This document shows positions 9,734 through 26,435 of a DNA stretch of 64,000 nucleotides, in pieces. Under the pieces are notes generated by a model. The model was not told the DNA's origin. It searched no databases and saw nothing but the letters and a program-made list of their open reading frames with translations. Made by a program: the position numbers and the translations under genes. Each line of letters opens with the position of its first letter. Position 1 is the stretch's first letter. The DNA is taken from NCBI GenBank assembly GCA_963781585.1, contig CAWAGQ010000010.1, positions 32,001-96,000 on the forward strand. Direction: 5' to 3'. The DNA is from an uncultured Gemmatimonadaceae bacterium. GTDB lineage: Bacteria > Gemmatimonadota > Gemmatimonadetes > Gemmatimonadales > Gemmatimonadaceae.

Positions 9734-9753
9734 CCTTCCACGGAGACCCTGGT

Positions 9754-10198: not shown

Positions 10199-10248
10199 TG
10201 ACGTCCCGCTGACGCAGGTCGGCGGGACGTGGTGTTCGGTGGATCACC

Positions 10249-10274
10249 GGTTGTTTGACAATCGAGCGTGTGCG
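10249..10274 (+). promoter_or_regulatory. boxA-like antitermination element and 5' arm of the 16S processing stem
   Basis: GGTTGTTTGACAAT resembles boxA. ATCGAGCGTGTGCG (10261-10274) is the exact reverse complement of 12004-12017. Confidence 0.6.
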
Positions 10275-10381
10275 TGTGGGGTTCTCGCCGATCCGCTGCG
10301 ATCGTGCGCAGCGGGGAGAGTCGAGACACGATGGATTCGGGGCGCGGTCCACGATCGCGCCCGCATGAGCTACATCGAACT

Positions 10382-11920
<1,539 letters not shown>

Positions 11921-12029
11921 ACGGAGCAGGCGAGTAGGACTCGGCGCCTAACGAACATGGTTCGGGGCGCCGGCCGAAAGCGGCTCACCAGTCGCACCCC
12001 GCCCGCACACGCTCGATGCTACTTTACGG

Positions 12030-12060
12030 ATCCCCGACCCCGCTCGGCAGGGCCGGGGAT
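12030..12060. terminator. Imperfect hairpin between the 16S trailer and the convergent gene
   Basis: atccccgaccccgc-tcg-gcagggccggggat, two mismatches, 3 nt from the stop codon of the convergent CDS. Confidence 0.45.
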
Positions 12061-12063
12061 TCG

Positions 12064-14592
12064 CTACTTCACCATCACCGACGCGCTGCCGCTCCTCGCC
12101 CCGCAGGTCGCCGACACCGTCGCCCCACCCTTCGATATCCCCGTCACGGTGAGAGCGATCTCTCCGCTGCCGTCGGTCAGGCCCTGCACGGGCGTGACGA
12201 TGACCCGCAGGAGATTGCTCGATGCCATCGTGCACGGGCGCCCCGATAGCGGAGCCCCGCCGCCATCCGTCACCTGCACGGTCAGCGATCCCTTCTTCCC
12301 CACGCCCACGTTCAGCGTTGCGGGGACGATGGTCACGCGGCCGACCCCAGGCACCACCCGCATCACCACCGCGTCACTGATGCCTCCGCTCGTGGCCGTG
12401 ATGCTCACCGGGCCGGCGGACACGCCGGTCACCGTCACCGCCAGCTCGCCCGAGGAGTTCGAGGTGCCCGAATCCGGCGCGACCGACGCCAGCGAAGGAT
12501 CGCTGCTGACCACCCCCACGTGCTGGCCCGGAACCGGCTGGCCCCCGCCGTCGAGCAGCCTTATGGTGCCCCCGACCGTCCCCGGGATGATCACGGAATC
12601 GGCCGCCAGCGACAACGCCACGCTCGTCACCGTTGGTCCCACCGTCACCATCGACGTCCCATGCGAGGTGTCCACCTGCGCCGTAATCGTCGCCAGGCCG
12701 TTCCCCACCGCCGAGACCAGTCCGGCCGCGGACACGGTGGCAACCGTTCCATCCGAACTGGACCAGCTCGTGGCCCGGCCGCCTAACGCCGAACCGCTCA
12801 CTGCCAGCCCGCCCGAATCGCGCGGCGTCGCCGCCAGCGGCGCCGTCGCGGGCGCGACCAGGACGACCGTCGTCGGCATCACATCCACCGACACGATCGC
12901 CACCAGGTCCACCGTCACCGACGACTTCCCCGATATGCCCTCGCTGGTGGCGGTAATGGTCGCTGAGCCCGGCGCCACACCGGTGACCACACCGCTGCCC
13001 GCGTCCACCGCGGCCACCAACGGTGCCGACGAGGTCCAGACGATTGCCCGTCCGGTGATCACGCTGCCCGACGCATCCCGCGTCTCAGCGGCAAACCGTC
13101 GCGCATACGTCGAGCCGACGTGCACCGTCGCTGCCGACGGATGCACCAGTACCGACGCCACCGGCGCGGACGTGACGTTCAGAGCGCTCGATCCACTCGG
13201 CGTCGTGCCGCCGATGCCCCCGCCCGGAGACGACGCGCTGATCGTCGCCTGACCAGCCGAGATGCCGGTCACCAGGCCGCTCTGCGAGACCGACGCCACC
13301 GAGCCGGCGTTCGACGCCCAGACAATGGTCCGACCCGTGAGCACGCTGCCCCGCGCGTCACGTGCGGTCGCGGTGAGCTGAACGGTTCGCTTCTCCTCCA
13401 CCGTGGCCGGGGACGGAGTGACCTCCAGCGTTGCGATCGGCGCGAGCGCCACCGTGACCACAGTCGTGCCGATGACCATGCCATCGGTGGCCGTCACCGT
13501 GACGGTGCCGACGGCAACCGCGGAAAGCACTCCGGCTCCGCTGACCGTGGCAACGTTCACGTCGCCGGTGGCCCACGAGATCGAATCGCCCGTGATCACG
13601 TTCCCCTGTGCGTCGCGCACGGTCGCCAACATCGGCAGAGTCTCTCCGACCGTGAGCGCGGGCGACGCCGGCGTGACCTGCAGCGTGACGGCCACTCCAG
13701 GGGTGACTGTCACTTCGGACGTGCCGCTCACGCCGCCCGACGTGGCGGTGATCGTCGCGCTTCCCGGGCTCACGCTCTGTACACGTCCGCTGCTCGAGAC
13801 CACGGCGACACTCTGGTCGCTCGAGCTCCACACCACCAGGCGCCCGGCAAGCGGATTGCCGTCGCGGTCGCTGATGATCGTGGCGAGCTGCACGAAGCCG
13901 CCGGAGGGGAGCCTTGCGGTCGGAGGCGTCACCACCACCGACGATACCGGAACCAGAACGACAGTCACGAGCGCAGTCCCGATCACGCCGCCCGCCGCCG
14001 CGCGGATGAGCGTCGCGCCCGGGGCGACGCCCGTCACAACGCCGGACGCGCTCACCGTCGCTATCGCGGGATCAGCAGAAGTCCAGTCGATGACGATGCC
14101 AGCGAGCGGGTTACCGTCGGCGTCACGGGCCTCCGCACCGAACGGAACGGTCCTGCCCACTTCCACGTCTGATTGCGGCGGTGCGACCGCGACGTGAGCC
14201 ACCGGGCGGGGGGTGACGGTGACGACGGCGATTCCCGACGTCCCCCTGAGTGAGGCAGCGATCTGCGTCGTCCCCGGCGCCAGCCCCGTCACCACCCCCG
14301 ACCGGCTGATGCTCGCGATGGTGGTGTTTTCCACGGACCAGAACGCGCTCCGCGCTTCCACGTCGTTCCCGTCCTGGTTGAACGTGAAGGCCGACAGCGT
14401 CGCGGTCCCTCCGATCGTGACCGTCACCCGGTCCGGGCGCACTTCAAGCAGCCCAGTCACGTTGGCAGCGGTAGGGGACGCCGCCTCCTGGCAGGAGAAC
14501 GCCGATCCCACGATCGTTGCGACCGCGAGCAGGCGCCACGGCCCATTCCGGGGGACGCCCTTACGCGCCTGTCGTCGCGCGCCCATCACCAT
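12064..14592 (-). CDS. Lipoprotein with about 9 tandem bacterial Ig-like (Big_2-type) domains
   Basis: Lipobox-like IVGSAFS-C; repeats of W.S.d..vAtV...G.VTGV.PG.a.I.A. Start chosen at ATG 14592 (14586 also possible). Confidence 0.85.
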   Translation of the reverse strand: MVMGARRQARKGVPRNGPWRLLAVATIVGSAFSCQEAASPTAANVTGLLEVRPDRVTVTIGGTATLSAFTFNQDGNDVEARSAFWSVENTTIASISRSGVVTGLAPGTTQIAASLRGTSGIAVVTVTPRPVAHVAVAPPQSDVEVGRTVPFGAEARDADGNPLAGIVIDWTSADPAIATVSASGVVTGVAPGATLIRAAAGGVIGTALVTVVLVPVSSVVVTPPTARLPSGGFVQLATIISDRDGNPLAGRLVVWSSSDQSVAVVSSSGRVQSVSPGSATITATSGGVSGTSEVTVTPGVAVTLQVTPASPALTVGETLPMLATVRDAQGNVITGDSISWATGDVNVATVSGAGVLSAVAVGTVTVTATDGMVIGTTVVTVALAPIATLEVTPSPATVEEKRTVQLTATARDARGSVLTGRTIVWASNAGSVASVSQSGLVTGISAGQATISASSPGGGIGGTTPSGSSALNVTSAPVASVLVHPSAATVHVGSTYARRFAAETRDASGSVITGRAIVWTSSAPLVAAVDAGSGVVTGVAPGSATITATSEGISGKSSVTVDLVAIVSVDVMPTTVVLVAPATAPLAATPRDSGGLAVSGSALGGRATSWSSSDGTVATVSAAGLVSAVGNGLATITAQVDTSHGTSMVTVGPTVTSVALSLAADSVIIPGTVGGTIRLLDGGGQPVPGQHVGVVSSDPSLASVAPDSGTSNSSGELAVTVTGVSAGPVSITATSGGISDAVVMRVVPGVGRVTIVPATLNVGVGKKGSLTVQVTDGGGAPLSGRPCTMASSNLLRVIVTPVQGLTDGSGEIALTVTGISKGGATVSATCGARSGSASVMVK

Positions 14593-14892
14593 GCCTGAAG
14601 ATCCGCACGCTGCGAAATCCTGCTGTGCCGGACCGGTGTGCGGTCCCCCGGTCGCGGCTGGACCTTGGAATATCCGCGCTCCACATCGTGGCGCAATGTC
14701 TGCGCCTGCCCGCTGCCGGCCGCCGTGAGCGGCGACACATGCTCGCCGTCGGGAGGGCGAGCTCACCTCCGGCCCGCCGCAGGCGGTCTCATGCGACCCG
14801 ACTCACTCGTACCGGCGTGGCGGAAACCTGCCTCCGTGCTCGACTTCGCCTCCGGTTGGTCCGCTCACGCTCCGAACGCGATCGCGAGTCCA

Positions 14893-16110
14893 TCACGGGC
14901 GATCCGCAGACGCACCGAACGACACCAAGAGCCCCAGTCCCACCCGCCGACCTGGCACAACGAGCACGATGGGTACCGGCCCGCCATCGCTGCGCGGCAG
15001 CGCCAGTGCCACCTGTGCGGCGCTCCCGCTCCGCGACGGCTGACCCGGCGAGGTGTCGATGATCGCCTCTGCGCGCGCGCGCGTCCCTCTCGCGTAGGCC
15101 ATGGCTTCGATGGACGCTCCCAGCCAGAGCGCGCCCGCGCCGGCGGCGCCGACCACGAAGTGCGGTCGCTCCGTCCGGGGAATCGAGTCGGAGTACGGGT
15201 TCCCGAACGGATCCGTGAATTGCTGGACTCGAATCGTCTCCTGGGAGAGAAAACCGTAGTAGACCGCGCCGGCCACGGCACCGAGCACCGCCAGTCCGAG
15301 CAGCGGACGGCCGGTGTTCATCTGCCCCAACCCGGGCACGATCCCCGAGAGGAGCGCGCGACCGGGACTGTAGACGCGATCCTGGAGACGCGCCGAAGCC
15401 GTCCGGATCGCAGCGCGGTCGGTGGCCGCGGGGGCGAGGTCGAGGTACTTCTCGAAGTCCCCGATGGCGGCCGCGCGCTCTCCTCGGGCGGCGCGGGCGA
15501 GGCCGCGGTTGTAGTACGCCTCGCCCGCAGTGGGGAGCTGGGTGGCGACGGCCCCGAAAACGGCTTCGGCGGCGGCGAACTGGCGCCGCTCGAGCAGGGC
15601 CACGCCGGAACGGAAGTTCGCCCGGGCTTCGTCCACCCGTGCCAGCTCCGAGGCCGGCACCAGCCGCACGACCCGGCCCCGGACCTCGTCTCCGTCCGGC
15701 GCGTTAGGCGAGAGCGTCAGGTAGCGGCAGTATTCGCGCACCGCGGCAGTGGCCGAATCGAGCGCCTCGTATTCGCGCCCGAGGTAGTACGCGACCCGCG
15801 CGTTCGACGGCGCCCGTAGCGCCGCCTTGAAGAATGCGTCGCGTGCCGCGGCGTGCTCCCCCTGCAGCGCCGCTTCCTGGCCGTCGGCGATGAGCTGACG
15901 TGCCTCCGCGTCGTCCCCGGACCCCGTACCGATCGGTGCCCCCGGGGTCGTGGGCAAGTACCTGGTGCATCCGGAGGCTCCGCTGGACGCGAGCGTCGGC
16001 TTCGGGGCAAGGCGCTGGGCGTCGGCGCGACCCGCGACCGCGGCCAGTGGCATCGCTATCGCGGCCAGGACCAGTGCGCGTCGAAGAATGAATCCCGCCA
16101 CCGGATGCAC
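14893..16110 (-). CDS. Exported tetratricopeptide-repeat protein with a C-terminal hydrophobic (DUF5683-like) region
   Basis: Signal peptide ending ADA-Q; TPR patterns (AYYLGREYEAL...YLTLSP, AYYNRGLARAARG...FEKYLDLAP); SPGRALLSGIVPGLGQM motif followed by hydrophobic segments. Confidence 0.78.
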   Translation of the reverse strand: MHPVAGFILRRALVLAAIAMPLAAVAGRADAQRLAPKPTLASSGASGCTRYLPTTPGAPIGTGSGDDAEARQLIADGQEAALQGEHAAARDAFFKAALRAPSNARVAYYLGREYEALDSATAAVREYCRYLTLSPNAPDGDEVRGRVVRLVPASELARVDEARANFRSGVALLERRQFAAAEAVFGAVATQLPTAGEAYYNRGLARAARGERAAAIGDFEKYLDLAPAATDRAAIRTASARLQDRVYSPGRALLSGIVPGLGQMNTGRPLLGLAVLGAVAGAVYYGFLSQETIRVQQFTDPFGNPYSDSIPRTERPHFVVGAAGAGALWLGASIEAMAYARGTRARAEAIIDTSPGQPSRSGSAAQVALALPRSDGGPVPIVLVVPGRRVGLGLLVSFGASADRP

Positions 16111-16120
16111 GTGGTCGCTC

Positions 16121-19100
16121 CTAGTTCACGGTGATGGACGAGGTCGCCACCTTCCCCTCGCACGTCACGGTAATGGTCGCTGTTCCGGTGGCCACCGGTG
16201 TAACGGTCAGTACGATCTGACCAAGGGGATCCGTGTTGCCGGATGTCGGCGCCACCGTCGCTACGTTGGTGTCGCTGGACATGACCGTGCAAGCCCGCCC
16301 AGCCAGCGCCGCGTGTGAAGCGTCTTCGACGTTCGCCGTCAGCGAGGCAGCCGTGGGTACCGTCAAGGGGGGAACCGGGTCCGGCGTGATGAAGACGGTG
16401 TCGACTGCAGCCAGCACGCGCACCACGACCACTCCCACCTGTCCCTCGCTGGTGGCCGAAATCGTGCTGTTCCCGGCCGAGACGCCCGTGATCAGCCCGG
16501 TGGACGGGTCCACCGTCGCCACCGATGGATCGCTCGACGCCCAGATGATCGGGCGTCCGGTGAGGGTGTTGTTGGCGGCATCTTTGAGCGTCGCCGTGGC
16601 CTGCAGCGAGGTGGTGCCGAGAATTGAATCGCCCGGAGTCGTGACCGTTACCGTACTGACGTGAGCCAGCACCCGAACGTCGTAGGCGCCGATCTTCGTT
16701 TCGCTCGTCGCCGTGATTGTCACCGTGCCGCTCGACACGCCGGTGATCAATCCGGTCAACGGATCGACCGTTGCCAGAGATGGATCCCCTGAAGCCCAGG
16801 TGACCGGCCTGCCGGTCAGTGTGTTGTTGCTCGCGTCCTTGAGCGTTGCGGTGGCCTGCAGCGTCCCCGTGCCGAGGATCGAGTCTCCCGCGGCAGTCAC
16901 GGTCACCGTGTTCACCGGCGCCAGCATGTGCACGGGCAAGCTCCCCACGATGCCCGCGCTGGTGGCGGTGATGTTCACGTTCCCCGGCGCAACGCCGGTG
17001 ATGGTGATGGCGACCTGACCTGAGCCGTTCGAGGTCGCGCTCCCCGGAGCGACCGTGGCCACGGACGGGTTGCTCGAGGCGATGGTGACGGTGCGTCCCG
17101 GGATTGGGGTGCTCGTGGCATCGCGCACGGTCGCTGTCGCCGATAGCGTCCCGGTGCCGACGATCAAGGTGTCGACTGGCGCGGTCACCGGCACCGAGCC
17201 CACCGCGGCGAGCACGTGGACCACCAGGTTGTCGCTCTTCCCTTCAACGGTCGCCGTGATCGTGGCAGTCCCGGGTGACACGCCGGTGATGAGCCCCGAC
17301 GCCGAATTGACCGTGGCGACGGGAGTCGCATTGCTGGACCATGTGATCGGGCGCCCGGTAAGGAGGTTGTTGCCCGCGTCGCGAAGCGTCGCCGCAGCCT
17401 GCAGCGTCGCCGTGCCGATGATCGAATCCGCCGGTGCGGTCACCGAAACGGAATTCACCGACGCCAGCATCCGGACCGGGAGCGTGCCGCTCACGCCGCT
17501 GCTGGTGGCGGTGATGGTGGCCGTCCCGGGCGACACGCTCGTTACGCTGATCGGCACGTTGCCCCCAGCGCCGGACGTGGCGTTTGAAGGACTCACGGTG
17601 GCTACCCCGATGTTGTTCGAGGAGATCGTGACCGTGCGTCCGGGAAGTGGGTTGTTGTTGGTGTCGCGCACCCTGGCGTTGGCCGACAGCGACCCGGCGC
17701 CAATCAGCGAGTCGGGGTTGGCCGTCACCTGCACCGAGCCCACGCCCGTGACCACGCGAATGCTCTTCGTTCCCTGTTTCGACTCGCTGGTGGCGGTGAT
17801 GGTCGTGGTACCGTCCGCGACACCGGTGATAAGCCCGGTGGACGCGTTCACCGTTGCCACCGATGGACTGCTGCTGGTCCACGCGATCGGGCGTCCGGTA
17901 AGAATGACGCTGCCGGCGTCCCTGAGCGTCGCCGTCGCCTGCAGCGTGGAGGTGCCGACGATGGAATCACTGGGCGCCGTCACGGTCACCGTGCTCACCG
18001 GATTCAGCATCCGCAGCGCAGTCGACCCGCTGTGTCCGCCGCTGCTCGCGTTGATGGTCGCCGAGCCCGCAGCGACACCCGTGACGGTGATGGCGACGGT
18101 CCCCGTCGCACTGGTTGTCGCCGAGAGGGGCGCCACGGTTGCGACCGCGGGATTCGACGAGGAGATGGCCACCGAACGGCCAGGGAGCGGGTTCGAGCCC
18201 GCGTCGCGGACGGTGATGGTGCCCGACACGGTGCCGGGGAGGATCAACGAGTCAGGCGCCACGGCAACGACCACCGATCCCGTACCGGCCAGCACCGTGA
18301 TGTCCGACGTGGCACTCTTGCCGGCGACCGTCGCGGTGATGGTGGCCGATCCCAGCGCAACCGCGGTCACCAGTCCGGTCTGACTGATGGTGGCGGCGGC
18401 CGCATTGCTGGTGTTCCAGGACGTGGATCGGCCGCCTAACGCCACTCCGGCGATCGCGCCGCCGGAGGAATCGCGCGCCGTGACGATCAGCTGCTGGGTC
18501 CCCGGCGGGACCAGCGTCGCCGTCGGCGGCGACAGATCGACGCGCTCGATCGGCACCAGGTCGATCGTCGCGCTCGCGGTGCCCAGGATTCCCTCACTCA
18601 GCGCCCGAATCTGGGTCACCCCCGGCGCCACGCCGGTGACCACGCCGGCCAACGCGTCGACGCTGGCGGCCGCAGGATTCGAGGACGACCACAACACGGT
18701 CCGCCCGGTGAGTTCGTGACCGAGCGCGTCCTTCATGGTGGCGGTGAATCGCACCCCATACGTCGCACCGACGTGCACCGTCGCCGGATCGGGCGTCACC
18801 ACCACTGATGCCACGGGCGCGTTGGACACCGACAGGCTCGCCGTGCCCTCGACGCTCCCGGGAGGGGGCGCACCGGGTGTGGTCACTGTGGCCGTGATGA
18901 TGGCGCTGCCCACCGCCACGCCGGTCGCGACGCCGCTCGCGCCGTCGATCGTGGCCACCGTAGGATCGCTGCTCGACCACACTACCGTGCGGCCGCTCAC
19001 CGTGAGCGGCACACCACCGGCATCGAACAGGTTGACGCCGAAGTTGGTCGTCTCGTTCACCCGGATCGACGCGGTCGAGGGCACGACATTCATGGTGGCG

Positions 19101-20014
19101 ACCGGCACGAGGCCCACCGTCACAGTGGCCGTGCCCTTGGGTGTCGATCCTCCCGGGCCGCTCTCCGGTGACGACGCGGTGACGGTGGCGGTGCCCGGAC
19201 TGACCCCGGTCACTACCCCCTGCTGCGAGACTGCCGCGATCGCGTCATTGCTCGACGACCAGACGATCGTACGTCCGGTGAGCGCATTGCCGTCGGCGTC
19301 CGCAGCGGTGGCGGTGAGCGGTTGCGTGCGCCCCACCTGGACGCTGACGCTGGGTGGCGCGATCATGATGGTGGCCACGGGGACTGGTACGACGGTCACG
19401 ATGGCGGTCCCCTGGACCGCGTCGACTGTGGCGTGGATGGTGGCCGCTCCGGGCGCGACGCCGCTCACGATCCCGTTTTCGTTCACCGTGGCGACGGACG
19501 GATCGCTCGACGACCAGACCGCCGTCCGCCCGCTGATCTGGCCGCCACCCGCGTCCAGAACCTCCAGAACCAGCTCCTTGCTGCTCCCGACTTCGACGCT
19601 GGTGGCCGACGGAGTCAAACGTACGATCGCCACCGGCGGATTCGTGACCGTGACCGCCACGAACGCCGGCACGCCCCGACTCGATGCGGCGATCTGGGTC
19701 GCGCCGGGTGACACCGCCGTCACCACGCCCGCCTGGCTCACGGTTGCGATGGCGCGATTCTGCGACGACCAGAATACACGGGCCACGATCTCCTGACCGG
19801 CATCATCGAACACGTGCGCCGCCACCGGCGCGTTCGCGCCGGCCGCGAGGTTCAGCACCTGCGGGTCGACGCCCACCCGACTCACCTTTTCCTCGCGCGG
19901 CGACAGCGGATTGTCGCACGAGATCAGGAGCGCGGCGTAGGCCAGCGCGAGTGGCAGGCGTCGCGCGCGTCCCGTTCGACTGGTTTCCGACACGCCCGAC
20001 TGCACCGACCGCAC
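16121..20014 (-). CDS. Large lipoprotein with about 14 tandem bacterial Ig-like domains
   Basis: Lipobox ALLIS-C; Thr/Val/Ser/Gly-rich ~85-90 aa repeats (VWSSSDPSVATV...GIVSGVAPG). Confidence 0.9.
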   Translation of the reverse strand: MRSVQSGVSETSRTGRARRLPLALAYAALLISCDNPLSPREEKVSRVGVDPQVLNLAAGANAPVAAHVFDDAGQEIVARVFWSSQNRAIATVSQAGVVTAVSPGATQIAASSRGVPAFVAVTVTNPPVAIVRLTPSATSVEVGSSKELVLEVLDAGGGQISGRTAVWSSSDPSVATVNENGIVSGVAPGAATIHATVDAVQGTAIVTVVPVPVATIMIAPPSVSVQVGRTQPLTATAADADGNALTGRTIVWSSSNDAIAAVSQQGVVTGVSPGTATVTASSPESGPGGSTPKGTATVTVGLVPVATMNVVPSTASIRVNETTNFGVNLFDAGGVPLTVSGRTVVWSSSDPTVATIDGASGVATGVAVGSAIITATVTTPGAPPPGSVEGTASLSVSNAPVASVVVTPDPATVHVGATYGVRFTATMKDALGHELTGRTVLWSSSNPAAASVDALAGVVTGVAPGVTQIRALSEGILGTASATIDLVPIERVDLSPPTATLVPPGTQQLIVTARDSSGGAIAGVALGGRSTSWNTSNAAAATISQTGLVTAVALGSATITATVAGKSATSDITVLAGTGSVVVAVAPDSLILPGTVSGTITVRDAGSNPLPGRSVAISSSNPAVATVAPLSATTSATGTVAITVTGVAAGSATINASSGGHSGSTALRMLNPVSTVTVTAPSDSIVGTSTLQATATLRDAGSVILTGRPIAWTSSSPSVATVNASTGLITGVADGTTTITATSESKQGTKSIRVVTGVGSVQVTANPDSLIGAGSLSANARVRDTNNNPLPGRTVTISSNNIGVATVSPSNATSGAGGNVPISVTSVSPGTATITATSSGVSGTLPVRMLASVNSVSVTAPADSIIGTATLQAAATLRDAGNNLLTGRPITWSSNATPVATVNSASGLITGVSPGTATITATVEGKSDNLVVHVLAAVGSVPVTAPVDTLIVGTGTLSATATVRDATSTPIPGRTVTIASSNPSVATVAPGSATSNGSGQVAITITGVAPGNVNITATSAGIVGSLPVHMLAPVNTVTVTAAGDSILGTGTLQATATLKDASNNTLTGRPVTWASGDPSLATVDPLTGLITGVSSGTVTITATSETKIGAYDVRVLAHVSTVTVTTPGDSILGTTSLQATATLKDAANNTLTGRPIIWASSDPSVATVDPSTGLITGVSAGNSTISATSEGQVGVVVVRVLAAVDTVFITPDPVPPLTVPTAASLTANVEDASHAALAGRACTVMSSDTNVATVAPTSGNTDPLGQIVLTVTPVATGTATITVTCEGKVATSSITVN

Positions 20015-20028
20015 CGACCGCGCCGGAC

Positions 20029-22836
20029 CTAACGTGGCGCTACGACGCGTGTGGGGAGCGCCGCGTTCTCGCGATCACCGCCACCCAACTGACCGTCGAC
20101 GTTGTAGCCCCAGCAGTACGCTTCGTTCAGCGTCGTGATGGCGCAGGTGTGCGCGCCGCTCGCGTGCAGCGCGGCCAGACGGGACAATCCGGTCACCGCC
20201 ACCGGACGGGAGTGATCGGTGGTGGTGCCGTCACCAAGCTGGCCGTACGCGTTGCGTCCCCAGCACAGCGCCCGCCCGTCGATCGTACGGGCGCAGGAGT
20301 GTCCGCTTCCCGCCACCACCGTCAGAAACGTCGCGGACGCATCCACCACGCGGGGGAACAGCGCCGGTACGCCCGGCGTGCCGGTGCCGAGTTGCCCGTA
20401 GTTGTTCTGACCCCAGCAATACGCCATGCCGGACGGTGCGACCCCGCACGAGTGCGCGCTCCCGGCGGCAATGCTGATGAACCGCGCGTCGGTTGCCACC
20501 GCAACGGGCGTGGTGCGGTCGGTGGTGCTTCCATCACCGAGCTGTCCGTTCCGATTCTCGCCCCAGCAATAGCCAATTCCGTCGAGTGTGAGCGCGCACG
20601 TGTGGTTCCAGCCGACCGCCAGGACCGCAACCGTGGCGGGAAGGGGAACAGGGACAGGCGCCGTTCTGGAGGAACGAGTGCCGTCTCCGAGCTGACCGTA
20701 CGCATTCGCGCCCCAGCAGAAGACAATCCCGGCCCGCGACAGCGCGCAGGTATGAGCGGCGCCGGTGCGCACCAACTGGAAGGTCGTGGCGCTGTTCACG
20801 TGAACCGGTGCCGCGCGCACCGACGTCGTGCCATCGCCGAGCTGTCCGGAATCGTTCTTTCCCCAGCAGTAGAGTTCACCGCCTGCTGTAACGCCGCAGG
20901 TGTGCCAGGCACCGGCCGCGATCTGGGTGAAGCCGAAGTCGCCCACCACCGGTTCCGGCGAGGTGCGTCCCTGGAACGATCCGTCGCCCAGTTGACCGCT
21001 CTCGTTGTTTCCCCAGCACGCCGCGCGCCCGTTGTCACCGATCAGACAGGAGTGTCGACTGCCGGCCGTAATGGTGCCGCGAACCACAGGGAAGATGAGC
21101 GCACGTACGGGCGTCGCCGGCGGGACCGGAGTCGTGTTCACCGTCGAGGACTGGCGTGTGAGCGTGGAGCCCGCTGCCCCGCCAGCAACCGGTGGCGGAG
21201 TGCCGGAGACCGTCGGGGCTATCCGCGCGACGGAATCGCGTGAACCCGGGGACGTTCGCGTTCGCGCGGTGGCGGAGTTCGGGACCGGCTCTCCGGCACT
21301 CTTCGCGGCGGTCACGCCGCTCTTCCTGGCGGCAGCCTCGTCGCGCGGTGGGGTGAGGGGTCCTGGCGAGGAGCTGACGTGCGCGTCGGGTACGGTGCGA
21401 CCCGCGAGCGTGTCGGGCGGGGCCGCTGCCGCGAGGTCAAAGGTGGAATCCGATTGCTTGCGCACCGAGTCGGCGCTGGCAACGGGCACTTCCACGGCGG
21501 CCCGATCGTTCATGAGGGCGACTGAGCCCCCTGCCGCAGCGCCGACGTCCCGCGCTGGCAACCCGAGCCCGAACCAGAGCGCGCCCGCGCTGGCGATCAG
21601 CACCATACCGCCGGCGGCGAGCCAGAGTCCGAAACGCGACTCCCGACGAACCTCCTTCTGTACCTCAAAACCCCGGAGCACGGGCTCGATCGCGTCCACT
21701 TGCTCGAACGACAGCTCCTTCAGCGCTCCATCGGGGTCCGTGGTCGCCGGCGCGTCCGCGGGCGAGCCAACACGCACCGCCTGACGATCGAACTTGACCG
21801 TCTGGAGCACCGCCTCGCTCGCGGGACCGCCCTCGCCGCGCGCCTGGCGCGTCGTCGCTGAGCGTCGTCGCCGGCGCCTTGCCGACTGCCATTCCCGGAA
21901 TCCCGGCGGCATCGGCTCGCTGCTCAACAGCGCGAGAAACCGCCCGGCGCTGCTCCAGCGGCGGTCGGGGTTCTTCTGCATCAGCCCCTCCAGCAGGTAC
22001 TGGAGGGTGGGGGACACGTCCTTGCGGAATTCGTCCAGGGGTGCCAGGAAATCGTGCTTCTGCCGGTAGATCACGTTGTACAGCGTCTCGCCGGACCACG
22101 GGCGGGCACCAGTCAGCATCTCCCAACCGACCATGCCCAGGCTGTACAGATCGCTGCGTCCGTCGATGTGAAATCCGTCGATCTGCTCGGGCGCCATGTA
22201 GGTCGGCGTGCCGATGGTGGTGCCGGTGGCGGTGAGCTCGGTGGGGGCGTCCAGCACGCGCGCCACGCCGAAGTCCGACAGCATTGCGCGTCCCGAGACT
22301 TCGTCGAGGAAGATGTTCTCCGGCTTCACATCCCGATGCACCACCCCCGCCTTGTGGGCGTAGGCCAGCGCGCGGGCCACGTCGCGCAGCACGTGCTCGG
22401 CGCGCGTGACGTCGAATGGTCCGGCCTCGAGCGCCGCCTTCAGCGTGCGTCCCGGCACCAGCTGCATTACGAGCGCCAGGCTGCCGTCGGAGAGGTGTCG
22501 TATCGCGTAGACGCCGACGATGTTCGGATGCTGCAGCTGGGCCACCGTCCGCGCCTCGCGGGCCAGCCGCGACACGGCTTCTGCGTCGGGAGAAAGGCGA
22601 GGCTGTACCACCTTGATCGCCACGTCACGCTGCAGGGCGCGGTCGCGTGCGCGGAACACCACCGCCATCCCCCCGCGCCCCAGCTCACCCAGCAGCTCGT
22701 AATCGGGATCGAGCTCACTCGGCCAGAGCGCGGGTCCTCCCCCCGGGTCCCGGCCGCCCTCTCCGAAGGCTGGCTCCGTCACCGGTGCCTCACGCGGCGG
22801 CAGTTCGCCCGGTACGTGTTCGCCGTCGCTCCGCAT
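20029..22836 (-). CDS. Transmembrane Hanks-type Ser/Thr kinase with a C-terminal 7-repeat RCC1/BLIP-II beta-propeller
   Basis: Kinase motifs LGRGGMAVV, VAIK, HRDVKPEN, DFG, GTPTYMAPE; TM segment FGLWLAAGGMVLIASAGALWFGL; seven G..H[TS]C...CWG.N..GQLG repeats. Confidence 0.92.
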   Translation of the reverse strand: MRSDGEHVPGELPPREAPVTEPAFGEGGRDPGGGPALWPSELDPDYELLGELGRGGMAVVFRARDRALQRDVAIKVVQPRLSPDAEAVSRLAREARTVAQLQHPNIVGVYAIRHLSDGSLALVMQLVPGRTLKAALEAGPFDVTRAEHVLRDVARALAYAHKAGVVHRDVKPENIFLDEVSGRAMLSDFGVARVLDAPTELTATGTTIGTPTYMAPEQIDGFHIDGRSDLYSLGMVGWEMLTGARPWSGETLYNVIYRQKHDFLAPLDEFRKDVSPTLQYLLEGLMQKNPDRRWSSAGRFLALLSSEPMPPGFREWQSARRRRRRSATTRQARGEGGPASEAVLQTVKFDRQAVRVGSPADAPATTDPDGALKELSFEQVDAIEPVLRGFEVQKEVRRESRFGLWLAAGGMVLIASAGALWFGLGLPARDVGAAAGGSVALMNDRAAVEVPVASADSVRKQSDSTFDLAAAAPPDTLAGRTVPDAHVSSSPGPLTPPRDEAAARKSGVTAAKSAGEPVPNSATARTRTSPGSRDSVARIAPTVSGTPPPVAGGAAGSTLTRQSSTVNTTPVPPATPVRALIFPVVRGTITAGSRHSCLIGDNGRAACWGNNESGQLGDGSFQGRTSPEPVVGDFGFTQIAAGAWHTCGVTAGGELYCWGKNDSGQLGDGTTSVRAAPVHVNSATTFQLVRTGAAHTCALSRAGIVFCWGANAYGQLGDGTRSSRTAPVPVPLPATVAVLAVGWNHTCALTLDGIGYCWGENRNGQLGDGSTTDRTTPVAVATDARFISIAAGSAHSCGVAPSGMAYCWGQNNYGQLGTGTPGVPALFPRVVDASATFLTVVAGSGHSCARTIDGRALCWGRNAYGQLGDGTTTDHSRPVAVTGLSRLAALHASGAHTCAITTLNEAYCWGYNVDGQLGGGDRENAALPTRVVAPR

Positions 22837-22848
22837 CGCGATCCCGGG

Positions 22849-23601
22849 TCAATGCTCATGGTAGACGAACACCACCGCACCCATCTCCAGTCGGTCTCCC
22901 TCCTGGAGGGTGAGCGCGCGGCCGGTTGGCGGGAGCGCCACACCGTTCAACGTCACCGGATTCGTCTGCGAGAGGTTGGCGAGGTGCCAGCGACCGGCGG
23001 AATACGAGAGTCGTGCGTGCTGGCGGCTCACGGTTGGATCGATCAATTGCACGTGCCGCAGCGGCGGACCCTCGCTCCGGCCGAACGTGACCGTGGTGCT
23101 CTCCTCCCCGACGCGACGCATGAAATGGATCTCCTGACCGACGTCGGTTCCGCCAACCACCTCCAGTCGACCCGGCAGGAACTCCAGAGTGCCTTCTTCC
23201 GCGCGATAATAGCGGACCTGACTCCCGGCGACCAAGTGCCCGCCATCCGGGATCTCCTGCGTTATCGCCTCCATCGGCTGCGTGGGCCGCTCGATGATCG
23301 GCTCGTCGGCCACGAGGATCACATCGTCTTCCTCCGCCTCCGTGACTGATCTCGCGGTAGGGGGCACCTGGCGAATGGAGGGGGGTGAGCGGTGCGGGGA
23401 GGGCTGGACCTCGCGCAGGGCAGGCGGTCTGGTCAAGGGAACGTCGGTTGCCATCAGAGGCATGATCAGCGCGGGCGCAGTGTGGCGACGCAGCGCCAGG
23501 TCGCGCCGCCAGCGGACGATTCGTAGTCCCGCCAGCACGAGTGCCAGGGCAACGACCATGGCGCCCGCAATGATGAGAAGGTTGACAGTGCTGACTCCCA
23601 T
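22849..23601 (-). CDS. Membrane-anchored FHA domain protein
   Basis: N-terminal TM, Pro-rich linker, FHA motifs TFGRS, VSRQHA, SQTNP, GDRLEMG. Start moved to ATG 23601. Confidence 0.85.
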   Translation of the reverse strand: MGVSTVNLLIIAGAMVVALALVLAGLRIVRWRRDLALRRHTAPALIMPLMATDVPLTRPPALREVQPSPHRSPPSIRQVPPTARSVTEAEEDDVILVADEPIIERPTQPMEAITQEIPDGGHLVAGSQVRYYRAEEGTLEFLPGRLEVVGGTDVGQEIHFMRRVGEESTTVTFGRSEGPPLRHVQLIDPTVSRQHARLSYSAGRWHLANLSQTNPVTLNGVALPPTGRALTLQEGDRLEMGAVVFVYHEH

Positions 23602-23809
23602 TCCGGCTTGACGGCTCCGTGACAGAGTGCGCAGGCGACTCCCCTGACCAACTCGCCTCCGGTACCGGTGCTGGTGCCCGGCTGTCCGAAACGCCCTCCT
23701 TGGCGACACGGGCCCCGGGACGCGGCACGGCCCCCAGTCCTAAGCTAGACGCGCCTCACGGGCGCGCCAGTGACCAACGCTACCGAGCGCCTGGCGGCGT
23801 ACCGGATGG

Positions 23810-24601
23810 CTATTTGGCCCTGAATCGGAACACCACCTCCCCCATCTCGATTCGATCGCCCTCGTTCAGCAACACCGAGCCGTCGTCCCCTTCGAGCGGA
23901 GTGTCGTTGACGATCACCGGGTTGGTGGCCGACATGTTGCCCAGGCGCCATCGACGTCCTTCCAGGGTGAGTTTCGCGTGCAAGCGGCTCACGGTGTGCT
24001 CATGGAGCTGCACGTGGCGATACTGGGGTCCGTCGCTCCGGCCAAAGGTGACCACCGTGTCCTTCTCGCCCGGATGTCGCACGAAGCGGATTTCCTGTCC
24101 CACGTCGCGGCCCTCAATCACCTCGAGCCTGCCCGGAAGGAACTGGAGCGTGCCGTCGGGCGTTCGCTGCGGACGCCGTGGCGGGGTACGCGGCTCTGCT
24201 CGCGACGTCGTTGATTCGGTCGCAAAGGTCTCGAGCCGGAGGTGAGGCGCTGAGGGTTCGGTGGACGCACCCGCACCCGCGTCCGCGACCGCCGGTCCAT
24301 CCGTACCGGTGGCGGATGCCACGGTGACGTTCGGCTCTGCTGACGGGCGCGCCGGATACTGTGGAGGGCTCGCGACGCGCCCCGGCTGCGCCGCGGGTTG
24401 GGCCGCGGGTTGCGGCGTCGGGCTCGATCGGATGGGGCGGGGAGGAACGATGTCGCGCGGTACGTTCAGTACTGCGACCGCGATGGGGCGGTGCATTTTG
24501 CGGCGACGGTTCATCCGGGGGAGCATCACGCCGAACAGCACCGCGAGAGCGATCGCGGCGACCGGAAGCAGCACGATAACGACGATGTCGTTACTCCTCA
24601 C
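23810..24601 (-). CDS. Membrane-anchored FHA domain protein (paralog of 22849-23601)
   Basis: N-terminal TM, Pro-rich linker, FHA motifs TFGRS, VSRLHA, SATNP, GDRIEMG. Confidence 0.85.
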   Translation of the reverse strand: MRSNDIVVIVLLPVAAIALAVLFGVMLPRMNRRRKMHRPIAVAVLNVPRDIVPPRPIRSSPTPQPAAQPAAQPGRVASPPQYPARPSAEPNVTVASATGTDGPAVADAGAGASTEPSAPHLRLETFATESTTSRAEPRTPPRRPQRTPDGTLQFLPGRLEVIEGRDVGQEIRFVRHPGEKDTVVTFGRSDGPQYRHVQLHEHTVSRLHAKLTLEGRRWRLGNMSATNPVIVNDTPLEGDDGSVLLNEGDRIEMGEVVFRFRAK

Positions 24602-24902
24602 AGGGCGGGTACGTCGCTGCAGAGAAGGTCAATGACCAGAGGGTGAAGTTGGGAGGTCGGTGTCAGAGATCGGACCGTGGAACCGCCCGGCGCGCGCAGG
24701 ACGCCGGATAAAGGGTATTAGGCCCCTCATTATAGATAGTACGACGAAGCAGGTTCGAGCGTGTGACGGAGAGCACTCAGTCAGGTAGCGAGGGTGAATC
24801 CAACCGTTCGGAATCCGGAGGCTCGCGTCGATTTCCCGATCGCTTCTCGACCCCTGTGCCTGGGAGGCTCCCTGACGCAAAAGAGCTATGCAGTCATTGA
24901 AG

Positions 24903-24931
24903 TTGGATGGAGGAACGGGGCGCGTTAAAAT
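24903..24931 (+). promoter_or_regulatory. Putative sigma70 promoter of tRNA-Ile
   Basis: TTGGAT-17 bp-TAAAAT. A second candidate, TTGGCG-18 bp-TAGGTT, lies at 24948-24977. Confidence 0.55.
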
Positions 24932-24991
24932 AGTTGTGTCGGCGGAATTGGCGCGACGAGGTGACGCAGCTTAGGTTGTCAGCCCTTGTAA

Positions 24992-25065
<74 letters not shown>

Positions 25066-25081
25066 TTTCTTCACGGTGTTT

Positions 25082-25116
25082 GCCCGTCGGAGCCCAGGGG
25101 CTCTGCGCGGGCTTTT
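25082..25116 (+). terminator. Rho-independent terminator after tRNA-Ile
   Basis: gcccg..ggagcc-cagg-ggctct..cgggc hairpin followed by TTTT. Confidence 0.65.
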
Positions 25117-25298
25117 CGCGTGCAGCATGGCGCTTCGAGCTTTCAGGATTGAGCCGCTGGCCCTCCATTCGGGCGCTCCATTCGCCTCGCCGTTCCGGGA
25201 CGCAGATGGGTTGCCGGGTTGAGGCGGCGGCTCCGCGAAAGACGCCACCCGAGGTCGTCGGTAGAGAGGCTCAGAAGTGGCCACTCTGGACACACTGT

Positions 25299-25323
25299 AT
25301 GACCGGTTGGAAGTTGCGGTCAT
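25299..25323. promoter_or_regulatory. Inverted repeat, putative antitoxin operator
   Basis: ATGACCG-11 bp-CGGTCAT, overlapping the antitoxin start codon. Confidence 0.45.
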
Positions 25324-25540
25324 GAAGAAGATCACTGCGGAAAAGTTCGAGGAGCAGTGTCTCGCTATTCTCGAGGGACTGGGTCCCGAAGGCGTCGTGG
25401 TCACGAAGCACGGCCGGCCCGTGGCCCGCGTACTCCCGATGCGAGAATCGTCGGCGGAGCTGATTGGGGCGCTGAGGGGGCAGGTCACGATCAAGGGCGA
25501 CTTGCTCAGCACTGGCGTATCGTGGGAGGCCGATCGTTAG
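25322..25540 (+). CDS. Type II antitoxin, Phd/YefM family
   Basis: MKKITAEKFEEQCLAIL...VVVTKHGRPVARVLP is the typical Phd/YefM pattern. Confidence 0.82.
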   Translation: MKKITAEKFEEQCLAILEGLGPEGVVVTKHGRPVARVLPMRESSAELIGALRGQVTIKGDLLSTGVSWEADR

Positions 25541-25720
25541 GCTCGACACGCATGTGCTCGTGTTCGCCCTGGCCGGCAAGCTCACGAGGACCAAGCGGCG
25601 AGTCGTCACGGCCGAAACGTGGAGGTCCCGGCCATCGTGCTCTGGGAGCTGGCAAAGCGCGTGCAGCCAGGCCGTCTGGAGCTCGATCTCGATGACGCCG
25701 AGAAGGTGCAGCTCCCGAGC
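25533..25720 (+). pseudogene. vapC: VapC/PIN-domain toxin pseudogene (frameshifted, truncated)
   Basis: LDTHVLVFAL in one frame, then AIVLWELAK...GRLELDLDD in another. No ATG before LDTH, and the C-terminal half of the PIN domain is missing. Confidence 0.75.
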
Positions 25721-25901
25721 CGGAGGAGGACAAATCCGGAATCAGGCTGAGAAATGTGCTCTCCATCCATATCCCGATCATGAGGATCGTGAACGATCCC
25801 GGAATTGGCTCGAGTCGACCGGAGGGAGCGGAGGAACACAGAGCTATTGAACGGCCGGGACGAGACACATCTTTGAGGGCACACCCATGCCGGATCATTC
25901 C

Positions 25902-26435
25902 ATGCGCCGTTTCCTCGTGCTCTTCGCTCTCGCTGCGTGCGCGTCCCCGAAAACGTCCGGCACAGACGAGATTACGCCACGACAGGCAACGGTGCTCACC
26001 GATGACCGCGTCATCAAGGCGGACGCCCCGCGCGCGGTGAGCCTCGAGATCGCCGCACCGCCAACGTCGGTCTGGACGATCGTCAAGCGAGTCTACCAGT
26101 CTCTCGAGGTTCCCGTCACGGTCGAGAACACGAAAACCCGGCAGATCGGCAACAACGACTTCTTCAAGTCACGCTCGATGGCGGGGCTCCCCATGTCGCA
26201 CTTCGTCGACTGCGGCACCGGCATGACGGGCTCGAAGGCAGACTCCTACCGGATCCACATGTCCGCTCTCACGATCGTCGCACCAAACGGGCAGGGCGGA
26301 ACCCGCCTCGAGACGACTTTCGTGCCGATCGGCCAGGATGTCAGCGGCGGGAGCGCCGATCGCATTTCCTGCGGCACGACCGGGAACTTCGAGGCGTTGA
26401 TCAACGAGAACGTGCGCGACAACGTGAAACGATAG
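25902..26435 (+). CDS. Hypothetical lipoprotein
   Basis: MRRFLVLFALAA-C lipobox; two further Cys (VDCG, ISCG). Confidence 0.75.
   Translation: MRRFLVLFALAACASPKTSGTDEITPRQATVLTDDRVIKADAPRAVSLEIAAPPTSVWTIVKRVYQSLEVPVTVENTKTRQIGNNDFFKSRSMAGLPMSHFVDCGTGMTGSKADSYRIHMSALTIVAPNGQGGTRLETTFVPIGQDVSGGSADRISCGTTGNFEALINENVRDNVKR

Follow-up and report, generated by a model that had tools for sequence, protein, structure and literature searches.

The locus comprises six open reading frames, all on the minus strand, that span positions 12064..24601 of the window (the whole 64,000-nucleotide stretch of DNA that was analysed) in a soil Gemmatimonadaceae bacterium. The initial annotation had described six co-oriented genes, here termed g1 to g6, with the middle four separated by only 10–14 nt, and the coordinates bear out both statements: the spacers measure 12 nt between g2 and g3, 14 nt between g3 and g4 and 10 nt between g4 and g5, with wider gaps between g1 and g2 (100 nt) and between g5 and g6 (at least 126 nt). 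The same annotation held that all products are membrane-anchored or exported, which agrees with the hydrophobic segments, lipoboxes and signal-like helix predicted in them. The divergent intergenic region between g1 and the tRNA-Ile(GAT) gene (24602..24991, with no strand assigned) presumably holds the putative cluster promoter. No match to the sigma-70 consensus was found in 9700–26500, and in an alignment of 12 loci conserved boxes appeared in this type of region only beside the tRNA gene. On one side the cluster is flanked by an orphan 16S copy and on the other by the only tRNA-Ile(GAT) gene of the genome, and an unrelated kinase gene is found nearby at 26453–28816.

The encoded proteins

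The first two genes encode predicted membrane-tethered FHA proteins, g1 (23810..24601, minus strand, 263 aa) and g2 (22849..23709, minus strand, 286 aa in its longest frame), which score 40.8 and 50.2 bits on the Pfam FHA family PF00498 (cut-off 20.7). In g1, a TM-like segment at aa 6–24 is followed by the stretch RMNRRRK, a Pro/Ala-rich linker and the FHA domain at aa 184–254 (nt 23840–24052). The TM-like segment of g2 lies at aa 44–62 and its FHA domain at aa 207–277 (nt 22879–23091), and its translation may begin only at an internal Met, aa 36. Each protein has one hydrophobic segment, after which come Arg/Lys-rich stretches. FHA domains bind phosphothreonine through a Gly-Arg pair, a Ser-x-x-His motif and an Asn, and this set corresponds to G187, R188, S205, H208 and N227 (g1 numbering), which, together with R206, are invariant in all 40 cluster FHA sequences; the N-terminal TM-like segment is likewise present in 40 of 40. 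g2 is a paralogue of g1, and in L002 the two cross-match with 55–56% identity over the FHA domain. It is missing from many orthologous loci, the single-FHA loci including L009, L011, L014–L016, L066 and L072.

The third gene, g3 (20029..22836, minus strand, 935 aa), encodes a predicted receptor Ser/Thr kinase with an RCC1-like propeller. The kinase domain at aa 46–296 (nt 21949–22701) scores 176.9 bits against a cut-off of 31.7 (PF00069), and the RCC1-like domain, with seven RCC1 stretches, scores 283.5 against 150 (PF25390 / PF00415). The single hydrophobic segment is a TM segment at aa 402–428 (nt 21553–21633), and a low-complexity linker precedes the seven-bladed propeller at aa ~588–935 (nt 20032–21075). 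Hanks kinases rely on the Lys of VAIK and on the HRD, DFG and APE motifs, and K75, H167-R168-D169, D188-F189-G190 and P216-E217 are invariant in all 34 g3 orthologues. The same holds for T346 (codon 21799–21801) and R351 of a juxtamembrane T-x-x-[F/Y/L]-x-R motif (34 of 34 kinases), and for 14 cysteines that form seven Cys...Cys pairs with a spacing of 50–51 residues; most blades read H-x-C...C-W-G. The closest solved propellers are those of UVR8 and HERC2.

Two of the products are predicted Ig-repeat lipoproteins. The larger, g4 (16121..20014, minus strand, 1297 aa), matches Big_2 with 369 bits in 13 stretches, and g6 (12064..14766, minus strand, 900 aa in its longest frame) with 227 bits in 7 stretches. 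A jackhmmer search seeded with one g4 unit recovered exactly 14 Ig units in g4, the number initially annotated, and 9 in g6. The Ig proteins also match Invasin_D3 and Big_1, and the intimin match is weak. Motif evidence points to a lipobox in g4 (L-I-S-C, then D-N-P-L) and a lipobox-like A-F-S-C in g6, whose signal-peptide-like N-terminus begins at an internal Met near 14598; this is the probable start and gives a protein of 844 aa. A lipobox is found in most orthologous Ig proteins, and position +2 is often Asp or Glu. In E. coli, Asp or Glu at this position keeps a lipoprotein at the inner membrane, a rule that may not be that of Gemmatimonadota.

The remaining product, g5 (14893..16110, minus strand, 405 aa), is a predicted signal peptide-TPR protein with a membrane hairpin (TPR_9, 38.7 bits against 35) and serves as the signature of the module. 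An N-terminal signal-like helix at aa 1–31, ending in A-D-A before a Q, and two later helices were identified. The parts that follow the N-terminus are a TPR domain (aa 64–241), a P-G-x-G-Q motif, a helix (269–286), a beta-hairpin (290–314) and a second helix (318–348). The AlphaFold2 model has a pLDDT of 84.6 and a pTM of 0.75, with a low-confidence C-terminal tail. Residues C48, C128, P259, G260 and G262 are invariant both in a set of 23 and in a set of 34 orthologues, and 438 clusters (50% identity) match g5 at E<=1e-30; fold searches with g5 returned generic TPR proteins only. The two invariant cysteines per propeller blade and C48/C128 of the TPR protein are consistent with an oxidising periplasmic location.

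Conservation and variation across Gemmatimonadota

Out of 69 public loci, 61 have a TPR-domain match, and 31 of these include at least 7 kb upstream of the TPR homologue. A kinase was detected in 27 of the 31, RCC1 in 27, FHA in 26, Ig in 26 and all four in 24, with FHA present in 26 of the 27 kinase-bearing loci; four (L063, L082, L083, L089) have a TPR homologue with no kinase or RCC1 nearby. Between the FHA stop and the match to the kinase domain lie 30–134 nt in 26 of 27 loci; the gap between the stop of the last Ig gene and the TPR-domain match, which begins ~55 codons into its gene, is 146–316 nt in 25 of 27. The frame that begins between –14 (an overlap) and +21 nt after the RCC1 gene was examined in 33 loci, and in 27 of them it encodes an Ig-type protein of 356–2321 aa. 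Judged from these distances, the spacing of the cluster is operon-like.

The conserved unit consists of four genes (FHA, kinase-RCC1, Ig and TPR), or of three where Ig is absent. The latter is the case in L013, L073 and L074, which lack an Ig gene between RCC1 and TPR, so Ig is not essential to the core. The second FHA gene and the second Ig gene are variable extras. An Ig gene 3' of the TPR gene occurs in some loci only (the window, L002, L005/L057, L006/L055, L049 and L059), and g6, a paralogue of g4, is an accessory that varies between loci. Of the six-gene module initially proposed, the part that stands is a conserved unit containing all four gene types in 24 of 31 loci, while the second FHA gene and g6 do not belong to its constant set.

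At the genome level, a search at E<=1e-10 recovered the TPR protein from 54 of 401 genomes of the phylum (G000 included), with 36 of 93 in family f1, 4 of 7 in f4, 13 of 70 in f7 and 0 of 166 in f2. Among the matches listed, beyond which there are 225 more, and with two candidates per genome scored, kinase and RCC1 occur in one frame in at least 40 genomes besides G000; 39 of 40 are TPR-positive, and in 33 of the 39 the kinase-RCC1 and TPR genes are no more than 12 kb apart on one strand of the same contig. The locus and genome counts are drawn from related genomes and hence are not independent. The synteny comparison suggested by the initial annotation turned out positive within the phylum, as three or more families of the class retain the joint occurrence of the genes, their order and their close packing, and negative beyond it, the cluster having been found in Gemmatimonadota and in none of the other phyla. 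Since the arrangement recurs in many genomes, it goes far beyond chance.

Certain lineages depart from the common layout. In f7 the genes stand in a permuted order, TPR-Ig-Ig-FHA::PP2C-kinase/RCC1, so that selection acts on the set and not on an inherited order; PP2C is fused there to the FHA protein. Profile searches with Pfam and NCBIfam detected no PP2C, VWA or T6SS family in the six cluster proteins; the absence claimed in the initial annotation is thus correct for this cluster, but the f7 module does include a PP2C. A giant DUF11 protein and further Ig proteins are encoded 3' of the TPR gene in f7. In f4 the propeller carries a DnaJ head instead of a kinase, or is headless, and FHA was not detected in L024, the single DnaJ-headed locus mapped for it. 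These f4 forms suggest that the periplasmic trio has a role that does not strictly need phosphorylation. Natural fusions were also observed, namely DnaJ-TM-Big_1-RCC1, TM-Big_1-RCC1, Big_2-RCC1x2 and Big_1-TPR-hairpin, and the joining of Big_1 and Big_2 to RCC1 and of Big_1 to TPR indicates that the periplasmic parts are linked.

A candidate trans-envelope signalling pathway

The genes appear to form a functional unit, a reading supported by the conservation of co-occurrence, order and spacing, by the FHA gene travelling with the kinase (26 of 27) and by the fusions that join the periplasmic parts. The cluster belongs to a known type of bacterial signalling pathway, of which it is an uncharacterised form. 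On balance, it is probably a lineage-restricted, trans-envelope receptor-kinase/FHA signalling module of the Gemmatimonadota class, a phosphorylation switch for monitoring the cell envelope in which the periplasmic propeller would act together with the TPR and Ig proteins.

In such a module g3 would be the receptor, with its kinase in the cytoplasm, and the TM helix and flexible linker would carry the disulfide-rich seven-bladed propeller into the periplasm. The propeller may there contact g5, whose TPR domain would be periplasmic and held at the inner membrane by the helical hairpin, a proposed topology with which the positive charges that follow the second g5 helix are at odds. In most lineages the long Ig-repeat lipoprotein g4 may be a further partner of the propeller, with g6 as an accessory. 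A change in the periplasmic partners, brought about by the envelope state or a bound ligand, would alter kinase activity; the kinase would autophosphorylate the invariant juxtamembrane Thr346, and pThr346 would then be read by g1 or g2 through its FHA domain, both proteins being presumably anchored in the same membrane by their N-termini. The catalytic residues of the kinase and the residues with which FHA domains bind phosphothreonine are all intact, and the Thr motif is invariant. A juxtamembrane phosphothreonine as an FHA docking site is an established theme, and T346 could be conserved for a reason other than FHA docking.

A broader and more tentative possibility is that the conserved element is the periplasmic platform itself, that is, the RCC1 propeller, the TPR-hairpin protein and the Ig lipoprotein, which may constitute a previously undescribed envelope-monitoring device of Gemmatimonadota pluggable into different cytoplasmic outputs. 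The outputs would be a Hanks kinase read by a tethered FHA protein (with or without fused PP2C), a complete DnaJ co-chaperone, or none. If so, one extracytoplasmic sensor would drive phospho-signalling or Hsp70 recruitment at the membrane.

Known systems and alternative readings

The initial annotation recognised no named system in this combination, and none has emerged: no curated NCBIfam model exceeds its cut-off for the cluster proteins, PADLOC recognises a kinase domain only and literature searches yielded no description of the cluster. The nearest likeness in logic is the TagQ/TagR-PpkA-Fha1 threonine phosphorylation pathway of the P. aeruginosa H1-T6SS. There PpkA, a Hanks kinase with a periplasmic domain, is proposed to be the target of a lipoprotein in the membrane and a second protein in the periplasm, Fha1 is the phosphothreonine reader, and the genes together form a self-contained sensor module (Kolesnikov et al. 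2026, PMC13713981). The cluster similarly encodes together a Hanks kinase with an ectodomain, a predicted lipoprotein and periplasmic partner, and a putative FHA reader, with contacts that would be analogous. By this analogy the cluster resembles the pathway in logic without belonging to it. There is no T6SS in the cluster proteins or flanks, and no TssC (PF05943) was found in its own genome, which is 93.5% complete. The ectodomain of g3 is an RCC1 propeller, whereas PpkA carries a VWA domain. Where the pathway has TagQ and TagR, the cluster encodes the TPR-hairpin protein of the membrane and a lipoprotein of Ig repeats; unlike TagQRST-PpkA-PppA, it has no TagS/TagT, and PppA is absent from the host family. 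Unlike Fha1/TagH, g1 and g2 are predicted to be membrane-anchored, and they score 23.1 and 30.5 bits against 120.25 (TIGR03354).

The comparison with PpkA and Fha1, which serve the T6SS, also lends itself to a different reading, in which the cluster is a structural or adhesive envelope assembly: the TPR protein and propeller would hold an Ig-rod lipoprotein acting as tether, spacer, fibre or adhesin, and the kinase and FHA proteins would only regulate its assembly or placement. The Ig proteins are long and of variable length (356–2321 aa across loci, 14 and 9 units here), as surface adhesins are, and their Invasin_D3, Big_1 and weak intimin matches point the same way, as do the persistence of the periplasmic trio with a DnaJ head or no head and the DUF11 giant and extra Ig proteins of f7. 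However, the Ig gene is absent from the otherwise complete L013, L073 and L074, the conserved f1 set has no outer-membrane beta-barrel, secretion or usher gene, and the +2 Asp/Glu of the close clade would mean inner-membrane retention if the E. coli rule applies. A structural or adhesive assembly seems rather unlikely.

As regards the favoured receptor-kinase/FHA module, a further parallel is M. tuberculosis PknD, a kinase with a TM segment and an extracellular beta-propeller. From its Pfam domains and TM-like segment, g3 would likewise be a one-pass receptor with an intracellular Hanks kinase and an extracytoplasmic propeller. The g3 propeller differs in being RCC1-type, with seven blades and two cysteines per blade, and not NHL; g3 scores 110.6 against a cut-off of 839 on the PknD model NF009651, and only the cluster has its own set of FHA, TPR and Ig partner genes.

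The actinobacterial PknA/PknB-FhaA/FhaB (FipA) system is similar in another way, with small FHA genes beside the kinase. Among solved structures, the kinase domain of g3 comes nearest to PknB and PknA of M. tuberculosis (E about 1e-49), the best NCBIfam match of g1 is FhaB/FipA, and the layout of the latter, a TM anchor and an FHA domain, is that of g1 and g2. A regulator of cell wall or division, with a propeller sensing peptidoglycan fragments, could be envisaged on these grounds, yet we regard it as improbable. The scores fall far under the cut-offs, with 30.1 and 25.6 bits against 125 for the two FHA proteins on FhaB/FipA and 266.7 against 450 for g3 on PknB_PASTA, the latter match being limited to the kinase part. 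There is no PASTA domain, RodA, PbpA, PstP, PBP and PP2C are absent from the neighbours, and the envelope is Gram-negative. Besides, the same genome has two separate FHA-FHA-PP2C loci elsewhere that suit such a role better.

An anti-phage defence system built around the Ser/Thr kinase (PD-T4-6-like or MADS-like) is very improbable: the PADLOC PD-T4-6 and mad6 models match g3 (E down to 1e-85), as do NCBIfam MAD6 and PglW below cut-off, but the PADLOC matches cover the generic kinase domain only, the kinase at 26453–28816 scores just as highly, none of the other five proteins is matched by PADLOC, and a fixed chromosomal site between BipA and the tRNA gene across genera, with a distribution that tracks family lines, is unlike that of a mobile defence island. 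It is equally hard to credit that functionally unrelated genes simply inherited their adjacency, for although the T2SSE ATPase, BipA and tRNA-Ile genes are also kept around the cluster in the close subclade, more distant genera retain it between different flanks, f7 keeps the set in another order, the intergenic gaps are 10–14 nt and members of the cluster are fused to one another.

Gene layout and residues of the cluster proteins

The six genes all lie on the minus strand and were recovered as open reading frames, in keeping with the co-oriented group described in the initial annotation: the FHA proteins g1 (23810-24601, 263 aa) and g2 (22849-23709, 286 aa), the kinase-propeller protein g3 (20029-22836, 935 aa), the Ig-repeat proteins g4 (16121-20014, 1297 aa) and g6 (12064-14766, 900 aa in its longest frame), and the TPR-hairpin protein g5 (14893-16110, 405 aa). 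The middle four genes are separated by 12 nt (g2-g3), 14 nt (g3-g4) and 10 nt (g4-g5), matching the gaps of 10-14 nt read previously, and the outer spacers measure 100 nt (g1-g2) and at least 126 nt (g5-g6), with an internal Met of g6 near 14598 marking the start of a signal-like N-terminus. A promoter scan found no sigma-70 matches around the cluster, and a terminator scan found fewer terminator-like sites there than in shuffles.

Pfam models exceed their curated cut-offs for FHA in g1 and g2, for Pkinase and an RCC1-like propeller with seven RCC1 stretches in g3, for Big_2/Big_1 arrays in g4 and g6, and for TPR in g5. A jackhmmer search seeded with one g4 unit counted 14 Ig units in g4, the same number as first reported, and 9 in g6; per-domain conservation of g4 singled out no unit as specially conserved. 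With regard to localisation, hydrophobicity and motifs predict that g1 and g2 each have an N-terminal anchor with Arg/Lys clusters after it; they also predict a single transmembrane (TM) segment in g3 (aa 402-428) between kinase and propeller, lipoboxes in g4 (LISC) and g6 (AFSC), and a signal-like helix ending in A-D-A|Q in g5, with two more helices further on; these predictions are consistent with the earlier view that all products are membrane-anchored or exported. As that view also held, PP2C, VWA and T6SS families are absent from the six cluster proteins when searched with Pfam and NCBIfam models.

The catalytic Lys, HRD, DFG and APE of the kinase are invariant in 34 g3 orthologues, as are 14 Cys residues of the propeller, two in each of the seven blades. 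The juxtamembrane linker between the kinase domain and the TM segment is otherwise unalignable and contains a sole motif of its kind, T346-x-x-[F/Y/L]-x-R351, in which T and R are invariant in 34/34 orthologues; we propose T346 as a candidate autophosphorylated docking site. The positions that we take to be the phosphothreonine-binding set, Gly-Arg, Ser-Arg-x-His and Asn, are invariant among the 40 FHA sequences from the clusters, and a TM-like segment lies N-terminal of the FHA domain in 40/40. A homologue search with the RCC1 region brought up generic RCC1 proteins by the thousand and was not informative. The g3 orthologue of the same-genus genome G001 appears as two abutting pieces in different frames (aa 1-119 and 120-935; locus L002, 14925-14927), a break in the kinase domain that reflects a frameshift or else an error of assembly.

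C48 and C128 of g5 are invariant among orthologues and constitute a candidate disulfide, and a P-G-x-G-Q motif ahead of the first membrane helix is likewise invariant. An AlphaFold2 model of g5 (34 sequences, pLDDT 84.6, pTM 0.75) predicts TPR helices at 64-241, two further helices (269-286 and 318-348) linked through a confidently modelled beta-hairpin (290-314), and a disordered tail. Both Foldseek against the PDB (MamA, consensus TPRs) and the VIA wide fold search (Z 11-14 over residues 63-246) retrieved only generic TPR proteins with this model. In the C-terminal half, a Pfam match to DUF6677 is sub-threshold (19.1 bits vs 24.3), and the ESM Atlas yielded Gemmatimonadota TPR clusters and a weak DUF5683 lead (0.88). 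The C-terminus of many orthologues is an alternating hydrophobic strand whose last residue is Phe (for example ...VRF), which recalls an outer-membrane beta-signal or donor strand; members of the window's clade have a few residues beyond this strand, and the tail (window 14893-15030) is of low confidence in the model.

Conservation and distribution of the module

The gene set was mapped by tblastn with domain-sized queries on 69 fetched public loci, of which 61 have a TPR-domain match and 31 of these have at least 7 kb of upstream sequence. Within these 31 loci, the kinase was found in 27, RCC1 in 27, FHA in 26 and an Ig gene in 26, with all four in 24. Kinase and RCC1 are missing together in four loci (L063, L082, L083, L089), the Ig gene in two (L073, L074) and the FHA match in one (L036). 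The FHA stop lies 30-134 nt from the kinase-domain match in 26/27 loci, and the last Ig stop 146-316 nt from the TPR-domain match in 25/27, a match that starts about 55 codons inside its gene. Furthermore, for 27 of 33 loci examined, the start of the Ig gene lies at -14 to +21 nt relative to the end of the RCC1 gene, and the spacing throughout the loci is operon-like.

A whole-protein g3 search of 401 phylum genomes found kinase and RCC1 in one open frame in at least 40 genomes besides the window's own; the search scored two candidates per genome and returned 225 more matches beyond those listed, which makes these counts a floor. Among the matches listed, 39 of these 40 genomes are TPR-positive, the exception being G247 (53 genomes besides the window's own are TPR-positive), and in 33 of the 39 the kinase-RCC1 and TPR genes share contig and strand and lie less than 12 kb apart. 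The 40 include one unpublished genome, G008, without which the figures among the matches listed become 38/39 and 32/38. The genomes counted are related, hence not independent samples. Nevertheless, mere inherited synteny is disfavoured because in Gemmatimonas-type loci the flanks differ, the cluster lying amid unrelated genes such as CBM9/DUF5916, glucose dehydrogenase, TspO and Nramp. The cluster is confirmed as a real, conserved module that co-occurs in other genomes, although the six genes initially grouped together reduce to a core of four.

The most specific protein of the cluster is g5. Its profile, built from 34 orthologues, matches 438 clusters (50% identity) at E<=1e-30 among 1.84 billion representatives, and the titles of related records name Gemmatimonadaceae, Gemmatimonas, Gemmatimonadales, Longimicrobiales and Gemmatimonadota. 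No convincing member from outside Gemmatimonadota appeared among the related records retrieved, the few otherwise-labelled ones being weak TPR-only matches or one "Kuenenia"-titled metagenome bin. At E<=1e-10, g5 is present in 54/401 sampled phylum genomes, counting the window's own; excluding it, the matches fall in families f1 (36/93), f4 (4/7) and f7 (13/70), with 0/166 in f2 and none in the 64 genomes of eight other sampled families. The isolate Roseisolibacter sp. H3M3-2 is also on record with a g5 homologue, on a contig of 913 nt (L081).

Variant architectures, related systems and a possible mechanism

Family f7 presents another gene order, with TPR, a small Big_2 protein, a large Big_1/Invasin_D3 protein, a TM-FHA-PP2C fusion and the kinase (L026 and L033, by Pfam and TM prediction), and in six f7 genomes (G348, G261, G385, G243, G323, G271) a kinase-RCC1 fusion lies 6-11 kb downstream of TPR. 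At the f4 locus L024, the propeller protein has the architecture DnaJ (J domain, zinc finger, C-terminal domain)-TM-Big_1-RCC1; the TPR gene and a gene for a Big_2/fn3 protein come next, and FHA has no match in this locus. DnaJ and RCC1 occur in one frame in 4/41 searched f4 genomes (G398, G445, G427, G201), with a TPR match directly after DnaJ-RCC1 in G201, and the f4 locus L025 encodes a headless TM-Big_1-RCC1. In L097-L099, a kinase and a short hairpin protein have a Big_2-RCC1x2 lipoprotein as their neighbour, and L089 and L093 encode a Big_1-TPR-hairpin fusion. Together, the variants suggest that the propeller, TPR-hairpin and Ig modules group together in the periplasm, that FHA (and PP2C) accompany the kinase, and that the cytoplasmic head is exchangeable. 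In a further f7 locus (L021, 13642-19896), the TPR gene and a small Big_2 protein are followed by a protein of more than 2085 aa with 14 DUF11 stretches, which extends past the end of the fetched stretch.

With regard to known systems, the closest in logic is TagQ/TagR-PpkA-Fha1 (PMC13713981), but the cluster's ectodomain and partners differ from it. Family searches found no T6SS family in the cluster or its flanks and no TssC (PF05943) in its genome, which is 93.5% complete, and the cluster FHA proteins reach 23-30 bits with the TagH model, whose cut-off is 120; for these reasons the cluster is not placed in that system. PknD-type propeller kinases share the layout of g3, but the g3 propeller is RCC1-type and the PknD model falls far below its cut-off. 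Among solved structures, the g3 kinase is closest to PknB and PknA; unlike PknB/FhaA/FhaB, however, the cluster has no PASTA domain and no RodA, PBP or PP2C neighbours, and the FhaB model is not matched. As for defence systems, the PADLOC matches are limited to the kinase domain. No description of the cluster was found in the open-access papers and preprints searched, in line with the earlier remark that the combination was not recognised as a named system. The module has a core of four genes, is best classed with the receptor-kinase/FHA pathways and is apparently undescribed so far.

We propose a mechanism in which the kinase domain and tethered FHA domains would face the cytoplasm, and the propeller, TPR domain and Ig rod would lie in the periplasm, where the partners might modulate the g3 kinase. 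Phosphorylated T346 could then recruit g1 or g2, and a PP2C might reset the switch; f7 has an FHA-PP2C fusion, and the window's own genome has four PP2C genes outside the cluster, two of them beside other FHA genes. The main rival is a structural or tethering role. Since DnaJ-headed and headless variants exist in which the periplasmic trio is kept, these architectures show that the trio has a role not strictly needing phosphorylation, and it is on this ground that the structural reading is retained beside the signalling one.

Gemmatimonadota are abundant in soil and, to our knowledge, almost unstudied genetically; we also know of very few bacterial receptor Ser/Thr kinases with a known input or partner set. 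The module offers a defined, conserved set comprising an ectodomain, two envelope partners, an FHA reader, a candidate docking Thr and, in one family, a fused phosphatase, along with natural variants with swapped cytoplasmic heads. The signalling mechanism is therefore concretely testable with regard to binding partners and the role of T346, and the module provides a handle on envelope monitoring in this phylum. It represents no new principle, because T6SS already provide examples of kinase-FHA pathways that have accessory lipoproteins in the periplasm.

Flanking RNA genes and genomic setting

A 16S rRNA gene (10382-11920, plus strand) is convergent with g6, 144 nt from its stop. Another contig carries a complete 16S-23S-5S operon with a 281-nt spacer devoid of tRNA, which rules out that the cluster splits an rrn operon. 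The window 16S is an orphan second copy, 100% identical to that of the operon over 1574 nt (10367-11940), a stretch covering the gene and about 15-20 nt on either side. Lineages differ in whether an orphan 16S lies between the TPR gene (or g6) and BipA: it is found at the BipA site in L044, L052 and L053, the last a 522-kb contig, is cut at contig ends in L008, L029, L047, L050 and L076, and is absent from the TPR-BipA site in, for example, L034. A high proportion of unlinked rRNA genes in Gemmatimonadetes is reported by Brewer et al. (preprint 10.1101/705046). A 136-aa ORF (9730-10140) lacks conservation at the corresponding position in L027.

On the other side, tRNA-Ile(GAT) (24992-25065, plus strand) is divergent from g1 and is the sole one that aragorn detects in the 17-contig assembly. 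At least 20 related loci share this divergent arrangement of the tRNA and the first FHA gene. In an alignment of 12 loci, conserved boxes precede the tRNA, TTGAC-like at about 52-57 nt and TA-rich at about 27-33 nt upstream of it. In the whole genome, aragorn lists 63 tRNAs, among them three putative ones: a tRNA-SeC, a 'tRNA-Stop(tta)' and one with a four-base anticodon. After the tRNA, an 87-aa ORF (25277-25540, plus strand) has a weak Phd/YefM match (E 0.0015, 18.7 bits vs a cut-off of 29.8), and the frames downstream of it (25554-25850) resemble no intact partner; this region may be a decayed toxin-antitoxin pair at the tRNA site. Further on (25887-28816, plus strand), a second Hanks kinase (787 aa, C-terminal TPR repeats) is immediately preceded by a 182-aa ORF that has a lipoprotein-like N-terminus and matches no Pfam family; the kinase occupies the same position in the same-genus locus L002 and was not seen in the available upstream sequence of the other loci.

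Elsewhere in the genome, RCC1 paralogue matches on contigs C5 (194560-195585) and C8 (201462-202487) both show 34.402% identity over 343 aa, and the PP2C matches on the same two contigs have equal frame lengths of 303 aa. This likeness suggests a duplicated region or redundant contigs, the contamination estimate of the assembly being 7.19%.
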